In this document: positions 31,809 through 34,834 of the stretch, in pieces
Position numbering within the stretch: the first letter of the stretch is position 1
How the letters are laid out: each line of letters begins with the position of its first letter
Source of the DNA: Candidatus Scatovivens sp.
GTDB taxonomy: Bacteria; Bacillota; Clostridia; TANB77; CAG-508
DNA length: 64,000 bases
Reading direction: 5' to 3'
NCBI GenBank assembly: GCA_045646345.1
Contig: JAZRKN010000016.1
Coordinates: 26,734 to 90,733, forward strand
The notes under the pieces: model-generated
The model's input: only the letters and a program-made list of their open reading frames with translations
What the model was told of the DNA's origin: nothing
The model's database searches: none
Made by a program: the position numbers and the translations under genes

Positions 31809-32066
31809 TTAATTAAGAAATAATGAATCTCTTACCAGCAATTCAAATGTGTCTAACCAAAGCTTATGCTCTCCCATTTTCTTTTTATAAATTAAATGTA
31901 ATACTTCATTAGCATAATTAAATGTATCTTTACTCATTTCAGTTTTTATTATATCTCTCATTTCAAATATAAAAGAATCTCTTCTAAGATATGGTATATC
32001 AATAGGATTATCAATATTTAGCAATTCTGATAGCTCTTGTAAACTTTTTTGTATTCTCTCTTCCAT
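31809..32066 (-). CDS. Small hypothetical protein, possible immunity partner of the ART-domain protein
   Basis: GAGG-type RBS in the 11-nt gap after the upstream stop. Confidence 0.75.
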   Translation of the reverse strand: MEERIQKSLQELSELLNIDNPIDIPYLRRDSFIFEMRDIIKTEMSKDTFNYANEVLHLIYKKKMGEHKLWLDTFELLVRDSLFLN

Positions 32067-32077
32067 AACAATTCCTC

Positions 32078-34834
32078 CTATAACTCAATTTCATCAGTAT
32101 TTTGTGCATTAGTTTTTTTACTTTTTGCAGTTTTTCTTTTTGTATCTCTTACAACTTCAGATAATTGTCTTGCAGCTTCTCTTGCAGAGTATTTCTTGTC
32201 CAAAGCTTTTCGCAAAGAAAATTTTAAAACTGAATTCGAAACAATTGGTTCAAAGCCATTTTGGGGCCTTGCAACACCTGATACTTTTCTTATAACTTCT
32301 CTTGGATCCATATATGTTTTTTCTACTCCAAGACTTAATATATCTCTTGTTGACTCTTGTCGAACTCCAGTTGAAACAAATAGAGTATCTGCTTTTAATC
32401 CTTCTTCATTTTTTTCAGATACATCGATCTCATAATTAATTTTAATAGCTTGTTTTCTAGTTATAGCTTCAGCTTTATCATATACAGAAAATTCTGAAAT
32501 TTTTGTTATCCTATCTCTTTTTTCTTCCAAGTCACCTTTACCTGTAGCTTCAACTTCATGTTTTGAAACTCTAGTAGAAGGAATTATCATTTCACTAATA
32601 ACTTCGCTTTTTTGTGGATCCGGCAATTCTAAACCATTATCTTCAATTAATTGTCTAAATTGCTCATTATCAAGTAATTTCTTTATTACTTGAGTTCTCA
32701 TTGATTGTTCATACACTCTCTCTGATATATTGTTCTTCTTAGCAATTAATTCTTTATCATAATCATATATAGTCAATATAGATTCAATTGGCATATTATT
32801 TATATAATATTCCTGTAAAAAATATAACTCATGCTCATTTAATCCAAATGTTTCTTCTGGATTTTCTTGCATTATTTTTTCTATACAACTTCCCACTTCA
32901 ACTGGATTTTTCGCTATATCTTTTAAAAACTTTTCTTGTCTTTTCGTTCTTCTGTCTTCTGTTAATAATAAAGCATCATATAATATTGGATCTATTTCTA
33001 CTATCGCCTCTTTAGGAATTATTCCTTTAAATAAAACCTCTCTTGAAGCAGGTGCATATTTTCTCACTCTTTCATGTTTTTTCTCTTTGCCAGATTTATC
33101 AATCTTTGAAGATATTAATGATGAGCCTGCATCACGTAAAATTCCTTCTTGATAACTAATCTTTCCACCTTGTGAAAAATCAATTATTCCTTCAGGAAGT
33201 TTTTCTCTACCAACATATATTAAATTTTCTTCATTTTCAATAATAGATAATCTTTCTGTGATTTTATTTTTTTGTTCTTCAGATAGTTTAGCTCTTTCTA
33301 ATAATTGTTTTAAAAATTCTTTTTCTCCAGTCAAAGCCATTTTTTCATCATTTATAATACCCAAACGTTGTCCCATTAATTCATAAACTTTATCTATGTT
33401 TATCAAAAATACCGATGCTCTTTGATTTTTATAAGCATTCCCAGAAGGAAATTCACTTAAATATGTTGCTGATATAGCAAATATCTTACTTGTTGAAATA
33501 AATGAAGTTTGCATTCCTGGTTTTGAGCCTTGTTCTATATGTGTTTGAGGTGAAATTCTAGAATCCAAATCCGCAGCTATAATTTCATTTCCATATTTAG
33601 AATCTTGCGCTCTGAATAACATTTCTGGGAAATCATACTTTTGTTTTATACTTTCACTCCATTCTAGTTTTCTTTGTTCTATATATTCATTTTCAGTTAC
33701 ACTTACATATTCACTTATCAAATCTCCCAAAACATCTTTTTTTACCAAAGATGGCATTTCATCCAATATACCTGCGATATAATTAGTTCCGTTATTCATT
33801 TTTTTAAAAAAGGGTTCATTTGGAAATCTAACATGTGTTATATACTTTTCTATGTCATTTTCGCTTTTTCCTTCTTTTCTTAATTGTACAATATCTTCAA
33901 AAATAGTTTTTAAAACAATTTCTGCACACCTTTCCCATTCTCGAGTAATTTTTTGTTTTGGATATTTTTTTCGATTTTGTTCTTTTAATTTATTTACATA
34001 CACCTTATAGTTAATAGATTTTGAAATAAACTCTTCTGCTGAAACACCTTCATTTTCTTTTTCTTCTAACAGTTTTAAGAAAATTTTCAAATTATAATAT
34101 CCAGCATCTACATCTCTTTTTTTTGAAGTTCCATATCTAGACATTCTTACTTGATCAGTCAATTTACTTACTTCTTCTTCTATTAACTTTTCTAACTCTT
34201 CTTCTTTTATCTTACTATGTTGTTCTACTTGTAAAGACAAACAATCTCTCTCATATTCTCTTGTATAAAACGCTGCTATAAGTTCTGAATACGAACTCAT
34301 CATTTCAGGATTTTCAGTTAATATTTCAGTCAATTCCTTAGGTGATATTCCTAATGAATTTTTTAAATATTCAGATTCTCTTTCCATAATTGGCTTTACA
34401 CTTTTTCTCTCTTCTACAGAATATTGATCGTGCAAAATCAACATATCTTTCATTCTTGCATCTTTACGAAATAAGTTCAAAATTGTATCAAAATCTTCTA
34501 TTGTGACATCAGCTTTATTTATTAACTCATTAATTAACTTTTTTAAATCTTGATCTCTTACAGGTTCTTTTCCTTCAAAAATTTCGCAAAAATCATCGAT
34601 TACTAAATCCATTTCAGTTTCAAATACTAATCGATCATTCTTTTTTCCTCCCAAAAGTATTGCATCTTCTACAAAAACAAAATCTTCCTTATAATCATAA
34701 TCTCCAATTATTCTCTCATAAGATTTTAATTTTTCTTTGTATTCTGGTTTTCTTTCTAATAAAACTCTTATTAATTTATTTTTTATTGCTATTTGATCTG
34801 AATAACTCAAATTATCAAATAATTCCCTTACCAT
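32078..34834 (-). CDS. 918-aa protein with an internal ADP-ribosyltransferase-like (R-S-E) domain
   Basis: MLFRAQ...HIEQGS...SFISTS...VFLINID...IIDFS...ASREVLFKGIIP.EAI. Confidence 0.75.
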   Translation of the reverse strand: MVRELFDNLSYSDQIAIKNKLIRVLLERKPEYKEKLKSYERIIGDYDYKEDFVFVEDAILLGGKKNDRLVFETEMDLVIDDFCEIFEGKEPVRDQDLKKLINELINKADVTIEDFDTILNLFRKDARMKDMLILHDQYSVEERKSVKPIMERESEYLKNSLGISPKELTEILTENPEMMSSYSELIAAFYTREYERDCLSLQVEQHSKIKEEELEKLIEEEVSKLTDQVRMSRYGTSKKRDVDAGYYNLKIFLKLLEEKENEGVSAEEFISKSINYKVYVNKLKEQNRKKYPKQKITREWERCAEIVLKTIFEDIVQLRKEGKSENDIEKYITHVRFPNEPFFKKMNNGTNYIAGILDEMPSLVKKDVLGDLISEYVSVTENEYIEQRKLEWSESIKQKYDFPEMLFRAQDSKYGNEIIAADLDSRISPQTHIEQGSKPGMQTSFISTSKIFAISATYLSEFPSGNAYKNQRASVFLINIDKVYELMGQRLGIINDEKMALTGEKEFLKQLLERAKLSEEQKNKITERLSIIENEENLIYVGREKLPEGIIDFSQGGKISYQEGILRDAGSSLISSKIDKSGKEKKHERVRKYAPASREVLFKGIIPKEAIVEIDPILYDALLLTEDRRTKRQEKFLKDIAKNPVEVGSCIEKIMQENPEETFGLNEHELYFLQEYYINNMPIESILTIYDYDKELIAKKNNISERVYEQSMRTQVIKKLLDNEQFRQLIEDNGLELPDPQKSEVISEMIIPSTRVSKHEVEATGKGDLEEKRDRITKISEFSVYDKAEAITRKQAIKINYEIDVSEKNEEGLKADTLFVSTGVRQESTRDILSLGVEKTYMDPREVIRKVSGVARPQNGFEPIVSNSVLKFSLRKALDKKYSAREAARQLSEVVRDTKRKTAKSKKTNAQNTDEIEL

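Follow-up and report, generated by a model that had tools for sequence, protein, structure and literature searches.

This locus raises the question of what a large protein with an ADP-ribosyltransferase (ART) domain and a tightly linked small protein do in a bacterium of the gut. The window, a stretch of 64,000 nucleotides from Candidatus Scatovivens sp., encodes both: a 918-aa protein (P0001) and, directly behind it, an 85-aa protein (P0002). A sequence-only reading had described the pair and left open what kind of system it forms, what it acts on and how it would be delivered. These points can now be narrowed, the target by a genomic link to NADAR hydrolases, which suggests nucleic acid, and the route by a type IV secretion system that belongs to the core of the order. 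We propose, with about an even chance of being right, that P0001 is an exported guanine-modifying toxin accompanied by an inhibitor and, as a separate protein, by a repair enzyme. The features of the ART gene are as follows (window coordinates, evidence in brackets):

32078..34834, minus strand: P0001, long-form ART protein, 918 aa (ORF list, homologues, family alignments)
33665..34834, minus strand: charged N-terminal part (aa 1-390), probably helical (sequence and homologue alignments)
32960..33664, minus strand: ART domain, approximately aa 391-625, with R408, H432, S447, Y458 and E599 (profile, model, features)
33619-33605, minus strand: LFRAQ motif with R408 (sequence)
33541-33524, minus strand: HIEQGS motif (sequence)
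33505-33488, minus strand: SFISTS motif with S447 (sequence)
33080..33379, minus strand: helical insert within the ART domain, approximately aa 486-585 (alignments, predicted structure)
33049-33032, minus strand: ASREVL motif with the catalytic-type E599; Ser at position -2, where the pierisin family has Gln (sequence, alignments)
33025-33002, minus strand: GIIPKEAI motif (sequence)
32627..32899, minus strand: helical domain after the ART, aa 646-736, family-wide (structure search of the model)
32081..32197, minus strand: C-terminal basic stretch and acidic tail with a hydrophobic end (sequence)

The ART core

The motifs LFRAQ, H...GS, SFISTS and ASREVL, which had been read from the sequence in this order, are all present, and R408 and E599 are invariant in 22/22 aligned homologues. 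Y458 is conserved in at least 90% of them; at H432 and S447 the first 11 homologues show no variation, but the P0014-P0019 subgroup does. The conservation of R408, E599 and Y458 indicates that the ART motifs exceed chance, and R408, S447 and E599 stand in the R-S-E order of the cholera-toxin-class ARTs. A profile of the family finds the solved ART of RhsF-CT (E 4e-7) as its sole sequence match in the PDB; R408, S447 and E599 are aligned there with R1403, S1445 and E1497 of RhsF, and Y458 follows the serine by 11 residues, the same spacing as that of Y1456. Searches with the single sequence of P0001 against Pfam, PDB, NCBIfam and PADLOC gave no useful match. It also remains below the 27-bit cut-off of DUF7587 (PF24494), a family without described function, with 13.8 bits, unlike its short relatives P0012, L003 and L029, which pass with 29.0, 29.2 and 31.3 bits.

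The structural check that had been suggested for the domain came out in favor of the ART fold in one search and short of significance in another. The AF2 model of aa 391-740 has a pLDDT of 72 (36 for a single-sequence model of the ART region), and the best 22 rows of a wide structure search with this model are all ART folds, with the highest Z values of 8.6, 8.4, 7.8, 7.7 and 7.7, of which the top one barely exceeds the level of 7-8 that unmatched models typically reach. Foldseek likewise returned mostly ARTs, but no match reached E 0.001. Protein-modifying toxins and Tpt1/KptA are among the best structure matches, with pertussis toxin, EcPltA and CARDS toxin among the top folds, and in the Atlas feature search the Pertussis_S1, Scabin-like and NarE clusters appear at 0.92-0.95. 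The ART call for P0001 is thus supported by the sequence profile, the structure model and language-model features, and the retained motifs and the predicted fold suggest that the enzyme is very probably active.

Long and short forms

The ART domain is central in P0001 and N-terminal in the short forms. Apart from near-identical copies, only P0005 and P0008 clearly match aa 1-390. The insert in the domain, previously estimated at about 60 aa, turns out to comprise about 81 residues more than in the short relatives (120 residues from N479 to E599 in P0001 vs 39 from D78 to E117 in P0012); it is predicted to form four helices and is typical of the long-form ARTs, which group as one clade with support of 97/95. 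The helical domain behind the ART is common to both forms. The structure search reveals its weak likeness to sigma-factor region 4 or helix-turn-helix domains (Z 3.5-4.5), which is not significant by sequence, and aa 625-745 have no usable match in the Atlas feature search; judging from the model, nucleic-acid binding by this domain is possible.

As had been stated before, neither hydropathy nor domain searches detect a signal peptide, an LXG or an Rhs part in P0001; they also reveal no membrane helix (19-residue hydropathy maximum of 1.1), no other known delivery domain and no receptor-binding or ricin domain. The stretch is present in gut metagenome runs, and contigs from public runs of one study span both the ART and the 85-aa gene (X2, 4287 bases; X5, 2779 bases); no RNA dataset is among the public runs listed for the stretch.

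The partner gene

31809..32066, minus strand: P0002, 85-aa partner and candidate inhibitor (ORF list; weak homologue in genome G359)
32067..32080, minus strand: junction with an 11-nt spacer and a GGAGG ribosome-binding site that overlaps the TAG stop of the ART gene (sequence)
31764..31793, no strand: terminator-like hairpin that has a T run on each strand and separates the P0002 gene from a convergent 217-aa gene

The 85-aa ORF indeed begins 11 nt past the ART stop, and because GGAGG overlaps this stop codon, the sequence suggests translational coupling of the ART and its partner. Promoter-like sites are not above chance (31 vs 27.0 expected, sd 4.0). The expectation that the pair would recur holds in part: a P0002-like ORF of 91 aa lies behind the long-form ART of genome G359, between the ART and its NADAR gene, but its homology to P0002 is modest (BLAST E 0.012, 19% identity, one of ten candidates tested), and the small genes that follow the short-form ARTs belong to a different family, which P0002 does not match. 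Shuffled sequences matched as well in 5/3000 local and 1/3000 global comparisons, and the ORF is the joint best of 4089 genome segments for P0002. Pattern scans for further long-form loci found none, and therefore the context of the long form is defined by two loci, those of P0001 and G359. Two other placements of P0002 were considered: its membership in the short-form partner family is unsupported (hhalign 0.2%, rank 302 of about 2000 shuffles), and the idea, conceived by eye, that it belongs to a family of 150-aa genes with 15 copies was rejected. We consider P0002 to be probably an inhibitor that binds the ART.

Linkage to NADAR and the likely target

The ART family is encoded in 11/401 genomes of the order, from 8 genera and 3 families and at differing chromosomal sites, and in 0/14 genomes of the same genus. 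All 11 ART genomes encode a NADAR of the NADAR-DarT1 family PF22397, vs 6/390 of the others (Fisher p of 1e-17, which overstates the association because kin are not independent). One of these six, G372, also carries an ART cassette, and G494 was left out of the ART count because the match there does not fall within the ART core. In G293, which is apparently not among the 401 genomes, a family ART runs off the contig end. The gene order ART, small helical gene, NADAR is found in 10/11 ART genomes, with the NADAR within about 1 kb downstream; nine of the ten linked NADARs are co-oriented (one across a contig break) and one is convergent. In the source genome of P0001 the NADAR is unlinked, on contig C17, with its catalytic residues conserved. 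The NADARs retain the equivalents of E88, K95 and D171, and four cassette NADARs score 221-238 bits against PF22397. DarT (PF14487) was found in 0/18 ART or NADAR genomes, by a search whose positive control gave a match beside a NADAR in G692.

According to the accessible parts of the literature on NADARs, these enzymes strip guanine of ADP-ribose in both DNA and RNA, also where the R-S-E enzyme ScARP has placed it, and are inactive on thymidine or 2'-OH marks. That an eraser of guanine ADP-ribose travels with the ART family points to a nucleic-acid target, and guanine (or cytosine) in nucleic acid is, in our estimation, the likely one. The long forms could have been retargeted to ADP-ribosylation of proteins or to destruction of NAD+, with the insert and the N-terminal region finding the target and the NADAR link belonging mainly to the short forms. 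The separate long-form clade with its own insert and partner family agrees with such a change, as do the unlinked NADAR and the missing Q-x-E motif of P0001 and the protein-modifying toxins among its top folds. It is nonetheless improbable, given that in G359 a NADAR gene still comes immediately after the partner of the long-form ART, that the P0001 genome encodes this hydrolase, rare in ART-negative genomes, and that the post-ART helical domain occurs in the short forms as well.

Type IV secretion as a candidate route

The core type IV system of the order comprises VirB4, with an orthologue in 39/41 genomes, VirD4, with a match in 20/20, and a VirB2-like pilin array; WXG100, Relaxase and MobA gave no match. 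Two features expected of a type IV substrate are present, a VirB4/VirD4 machine in the genome and the lack of a Sec signal on P0001. Its C-terminal stretch (32081..32197) is a candidate secretion signal judged from its composition. The near-universal presence of the core system cannot single out P0001 as cargo. Tails of the [DE]R type are found in 6/21 members of the ART family vs 48/1281 genome proteins, by patterns chosen after the data were seen; the P0001 tail does not fit, like those of 15/21 family members. A 150-aa gene, present in three types of ART cassettes, has 15 paralogues here, and 6/13 cases follow tail-bearing genes vs 41/1237. We estimate the chance that P0001 is exported via the chromosomal type IV secretion system of the order as even or slightly better.

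The main rival to export, which we regard as unlikely, is that the genes form a toxin-antitoxin or anti-phage module acting inside the cell, an analogue of DarTG1 from another ART class. Upon release of the partner, guanine of phage or own DNA would become the substrate of the ART, the NADAR would reverse the modification, and no protein would leave the cell. The linked hydrolase belongs to the very subfamily that serves as the antitoxin in anti-phage DarTG1, the patchy distribution of the family is defence-like, and the proteins have no recognizable delivery domain, nor, mostly, a [DE]R tail. On the other hand, PADLOC matches 0/12 proteins (weak evidence from a library of 2023), the cassettes examined are flanked by housekeeping genes and no defence genes were seen next to them, a toxin gene followed by a separate small gene is the layout of effector-immunity pairs, and several cassettes include the 150-aa gene found behind tail-bearing proteins. 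Type IV delivery could also be directed at eukaryotes in the animal gut, either host cells or protists, in line with the pierisin-family and pertussis-like folds, which act on eukaryotes, and with the gut origin of the metagenome runs. This we consider very improbable: a protein that comes with a cognate small gene and a NADAR should be toxic to bacteria, RhsF, whose sequence is the closest of those solved, acts against bacteria, and no receptor-binding or ricin domain was found in P0001.

The proposed explanation is one of exchange between bacteria, in which the cholera-toxin-class ART of P0001 would transfer ADP-ribose from NAD+ onto guanine in DNA or RNA, the type IV system of the order would carry P0001 into other bacteria, the 85-aa partner would restrain it in the producer cell, and the NADAR hydrolase would erase the marks that escape. 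Possession of both an inhibitor and an eraser agrees with such exchange, since the eraser would in addition guard against the versions of neighbours. The odds for activity, target, inhibitor and export are not independent. More tentatively, and with less than even chances, the core type IV system of the order may inject guanine-ADP-ribosylating toxins into other bacteria, with self-protection in two layers, the inhibitor and a NADAR taken from DarTG1. If this holds, P0001 would be the first identified cargo of the type IV machine of the order, its NADAR would serve an exported toxin, and guanine would be modified without the Q-x-E motif of pierisins.

Comparison with known systems

RhsF-CT/RhsFi of Chromobacterium violaceum (PDB 9ZDM) shares with P0001 the aligned R, S and E, the spacing of the Tyr and, according to the accessible part of its description, a small downstream gene, which there encodes the immunity protein of an antibacterial toxin of unknown target (10.64898/2025.12.06.692724). 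In the same source, the RhsF ART forms the C-terminal tip of a type VI Rhs/FIX carrier, unlike the family of P0001, with its central or N-terminal ART, its insert, its trailing helical domain and its NADAR. The Rhs and LXG polymorphic toxins in general also have a small co-occurring downstream gene, but P0001 lacks their delivery domain and C-terminal placement of the toxin. The proposed explanation offers a substrate hypothesis for the ARTs similar to RhsF and DUF7587.

DarTG1 (DarT1-NADAR; PMC11543638, PMC11125620) and the P0001-family cassettes have NADARs of the same subfamily, PF22397, with the catalytic residues kept in those of the cassettes, and guanine chemistry is likely common to both. 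Its toxin is DarT, whereas here it is an R-S-E enzyme, with a third small gene between toxin and NADAR; the DarTG1-style NADAR beside the toxin is seen in 10/11 family genomes and not at the P0001 locus. If our explanation is true, it accounts for the role of DarT1-type NADARs in genomes without DarT.

The pierisin family (ScARP, Scabin, pierisin-1) shares the cholera-toxin-class fold (Z 7.7 for Scabin and 5.0 for pierisin-1), and its guanine marks are removed by NADARs, according to the portions of two reports that could be consulted (PMC12945103, PMC11833690). The same portions give the ScARP motif as Q162-x-E164, with activity strongly lowered by Q162S, and describe no operon-linked NADAR and small partner for this family. 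P0001 differs in having neither Q-x-E (S597-R-E599 in its place) nor a signal sequence or ricin domain. Gln at position -2 of the catalytic Glu occurs in none of the aligned homologues, and P0001 has no match to Pfam Scabin-like at E up to 1. The absence of Q-x-E speaks against guanine specificity, and in view of the strong effect of Q162S on ScARP, guanine recognition would need another mode. Modification at guanine N2, as in the pierisin family, is suggested for P0001 by the NADAR link.

The same three-gene logic of toxin, immunity and repair is found in the YwqJ-YwqK-EndoV operon of Bacillus subtilis, which the authors of a 2026 preprint, in its accessible part, claim as the first toxin-immunity operon known to include a repair enzyme of its own (PMC13648612). 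According to that part, YwqJ is a deaminase paired with endonuclease V, with an LXG domain and type VII secretion, unlike the ART and direct-reversal hydrolase considered here, which come with no WXG100 or LXG match. The repair gene follows the small gene in 10/11 family genomes and is split off in that of P0001. If true, our explanation makes this a second, chemically different case of a separate repair gene in a toxin-immunity locus. No description of an ART-small gene-NADAR system was found in the literature searched; gene-neighbourhood tables in supplements may contain ART-NADAR pairs.

The type IV system resembles that of Patescibacteria in being chromosomal, in a monoderm with a small genome, and in having VirB4/VirD4 and a tandem pilin array; the part of the review at hand calls Patescibacteria the only Gram-positive exception with VirB2 (PMC12857230). 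The machine described here differs in belonging to a Clostridia order. For this chromosomal machine, found in a common lineage of uncultured gut bacteria, P0001 is a concrete candidate as cargo, with a bearing on the lifestyle of small-genome gut bacteria.

Setting of the locus

35316..35404, plus strand: tRNA-Leu(TAA), context only, with an integrase island on its 3' side (tRNA call)
36066..37292, plus strand: tyrosine integrase, context only (ORF and domain search)

A link of the pair to a tRNA integration hotspot had been suggested. The tRNA-Leu has the ART pair on its 5' side and the integrase on its 3' side, by which we infer that the pair is beside the island and not in it; the GC of the ART gene equals the genome average, relatives of the ART occupy unrelated housekeeping sites, and the link was rejected on these grounds. 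The tRNA-upstream regions of five relatives contain no ART pair. A 244-base contig, too weak to use because its short side has only 32 bases, joins positions 31743 and 34955 at a depth of 3.9 and resembles an empty site.

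Identification of the ART family

Re-reading of the sequence bore out the two ORFs, the 11-nt spacer between them and the order of motifs described in the sequence-only reading:

32078-34834 (-), P0001, 918-aa long-form ADP-ribosyltransferase (ART) protein
31809-32066 (-), P0002, 85-aa partner, candidate inhibitor

P0001 belongs to a real, undescribed family of ARTs. Single-sequence searches with P0001 returned no family, and a search of representative proteins returned 10 family proteins. Searching the whole order brought in short forms, 385-671 aa long, with the same domain at their start; the long forms fall together on one side of a branch with good support (97/95). 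In the alignment of 22 sequences R408 and E599 (P0001 numbering) are invariant, and G436, Y458, I606, D620, F672 and Y677 nearly so. A family profile of 11 sequences had a single match in the PDB, RhsF-CT (E 4e-7), along which R408, S447 and E599 correspond to R1403, S1445 and E1497, and the spacing of Y458 is that of RhsF Y1456. In the RhsF paper, toxicity needs R, Y and E, and the target is left open (10.64898/2025.12.06.692724).

The fold expected for this region was recovered: rows 1-22 of a wide structure search are all ART folds, with a best Z of 8.6, which is just above the level reached by unmatched models, the evidence being the uniform list of ART folds rather than the score. The model of aa 391-740 (pLDDT 72, pTM 0.70) had no Foldseek match at E 0.001 or better; the Atlas feature search agrees with the ART identity. 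The helical insert noticed earlier is present, with about 81 residues instead of ~60. A helical domain (aa 646-736) is kept in all family members, and 17 of structure-search rows 23-50 liken it to sigma region 4 or a helix-turn-helix (Z 3.5-4.5); this likeness of the model, not significant by sequence, is a hint only. One metagenome record (database proteins P0021 and P0029) has the ART gene in two pieces and the partner joined to the C-terminal one, which may be an assembly error.

Association with NADAR and the putative target

The NADAR eraser of guanine ADP-ribose (DarT1 type, PF22397) is strongly associated with the ART family, while at the window locus toxin and partner alone are adjacent. 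The ART-profile and NADAR searches covered the same 401 genomes, as their identical tallies show. The ART profile matched 12 of them, or 11 with G494 left out, and NADAR-DarT1 matched 17, one of them weakly; NADAR is found in 11/11 ART genomes vs 6/390 others. The genes follow one another on one strand as ART, small gene and NADAR in G049, G085, G359, G363, G375, G387, G400 and G421. In G457 the NADAR is convergent; in G369 a contig break splits the ART, whose C-terminal part leads into the small gene and NADAR; G372, reached via its NADAR, proved to have an upstream ART as well (E 7e-7), and locus L077 holds a further ART cassette. The neighbours are housekeeping genes that differ from site to site. 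The source genome is the exception, its NADAR standing alone on contig C17 with catalytic residues kept. DarT, the known NADAR partner, was found in 0/18 of the ART or NADAR genomes searched; the same search did detect DarT in another Clostridia genome, next to a NADAR. Divergent stand-alone NADARs at L050 (G356) and L051 (G199) lack the N-terminal and D-x-E motifs that are usual in NADARs and group on a branch apart; no ART adjoins them in the loci read.

According to published work, NADARs take ADP-ribose off guanine in DNA and RNA, and some also act on cytidine marks, none on thymidine or 2'-OH (PMC11543638, PMC11125620, PMC11833690, PMC12945103). From the NADAR link and this published specificity we infer that the family likely targets guanine. 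The residue two before E599 is Ser, which counts against such a target, and Q162S is described as crippling ScARP (PMC12945103, PMC11833690). Q-x-E is not the sole way to guanine, because DarT1 reaches it by other residues (PMC11543638, PMC11125620).

By analogy, the family would work like an RhsF-type toxin with predicted DarTG1 or pierisin-type chemistry; judged by the features that define Rhs/LXG toxins, DarT and the pierisin family, it falls outside each of the three. In layout it comes nearest to YwqJ-YwqK-EndoV, presented in 2026 as the first case of a separate gene for repair within a toxin-immunity operon (PMC13648612). In keeping with the earlier label "undescribed", a literature search at the level of main texts found nothing on the pairing of ART, small gene and NADAR. 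PMC9503650 and PMC11680825 were also drawn on.

The small partner

P0002 matched no family in family searches, and its relatives in the protein database are near ones only. The short forms carry a small partner family of their own, with an invariant Arg-x-Gly, which P0002 does not match. The single other readable long-form locus is in G359, where the ART is about 21-29% identical and a 91-aa gene, sharing the pattern I-Y-x-K-K-x6-W-L with P0002, lies between ART and NADAR. The score of this protein against P0002 was reached by 5/3000 local and 1/3000 global shuffles; the best of nine other candidates was reached by 108/3000, and of 4089 genome segments P0002 shares first place. By these scores, the proposed co-occurrence of the pair gains modest support, a P0002-like gene following the long-form ART of G359. 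Such a split, in which each of the two toxin groups has a partner family of its own, would be expected if the small proteins are cognate inhibitors.

Genomic setting of the pair

The pair is an accessory gene pair adjoining a tRNA hotspot in a genome that measures 1.79 Mb and has a GC content of about 27-28%. The stop of the first ORF shares bases with a ribosome-binding site, and 3' of the second gene lies a hairpin that has T runs on each strand. Contigs from public gut runs bridge both genes, which rules out an assembly artefact. It does lie beside the hotspot, as was proposed, but not on the side of the integrase, which is 3' of tRNA-Leu; integrase-like sequence recurs across the genus. 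The GC of the pair is ordinary. It was not found in the 14 same-genus genomes searched, nor upstream of tRNA-Leu in the five relatives read.

Two minor observations concern the surroundings. tRNA-Leu and glyS are convergent, with an integrase island between them (window 35316-44438). In some same-genus genomes, e.g. G153 and G239, the two seem to lie side by side in one direction, and this points to an inversion. A membrane-anchored protein with a colicin-DNase/WHH nuclease domain (window 26472-27233, +), also present in G537, has no obvious immunity gene.

A candidate export route

The genome encodes a core, chromosomal type IV secretion system of VirB4, VirD4 and VirB2-like proteins:

C14:133442-155594 (loci L014, L015), seven small tandem genes, VirB4 and several large membrane proteins
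C11:129170-131231 (locus L016), VirD4, apart, among housekeeping genes

All five tandem genes tested match the VirB2-type pilin family, four above the cut-off. A VirB4 orthologue, 65-95% identical, occurs in 39/41 genomes of the order (36/36 high-quality ones), and VirD4 was matched in 20/20 genomes; G085 has a weaker best match, perhaps to a conjugative copy. Searches for Relaxase, MobA and WXG100 gave no match; one Mob_Pre lies on C1 next to integrase-like sequence. According to a review, Patescibacteria are the one exception among Gram-positives in having VirB2 (PMC12857230), and our literature search, again at the level of main texts, found no paper on a type IV system in the TANB77 lineage.

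In many source-genome proteins the C-terminus consists of a basic stretch followed by an acidic tail; most of these proteins matched none of the families scanned. The motif [DE]-x-[DE]R occurs 4.5 times as often at true ends as within proteins (21/1281 vs 0.36%), and a [DE]R end is found in 6/21 members of the ART family vs 3.75% of the genome. Type IV substrates carry C-terminal signals, and export of the ART by this route is plausible. P0001 itself has the basic stretch, with final residues that differ from the [DE]R form.

An unannotated family of ~150 aa has 15 copies in the source genome, the gene at window 50257-50760 (+) plus 14 paralogues. A gene with a [DE]R tail often comes immediately before them (6/13 vs 41/1237), and several ART cassettes also contain a member; the family may provide an effector chaperone or adaptor. 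Further candidate type IV cargo has acidic or [DE]R-type tails, in some cases together with helicase, HD or sugar-kinase-like domains:

C14:96143-101893
C14:83752-86748
C14:94852-96003
C13:13420-16692
C15:271383-273857
C7:22824-27161
window 49773-50279

Adjoining a gene of the 150-aa family, a 257-aa ORF (C3:12531-13304, -) with Y-H-T-T at its start may, judging by eye, encode a histidine-type ART or KptA-like domain.

VirD4 appears broken (L016:2171-4233); reading CGGA as Gly with a +1 frame change yields a full-length protein of 686 aa with the Walker A motif restored. A second broken gene, near C14:68386, also has CGGA at its apparent break. CGG is rare (96/491238 codons), is followed by A in 40/96 cases and lies near ORF ends in 19/96, vs 40/374 for CGA. 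CGGA is possibly a lineage-wide frameshift rule, of which the literature search found no description; several relatives have the same shortened VirD4 frame.
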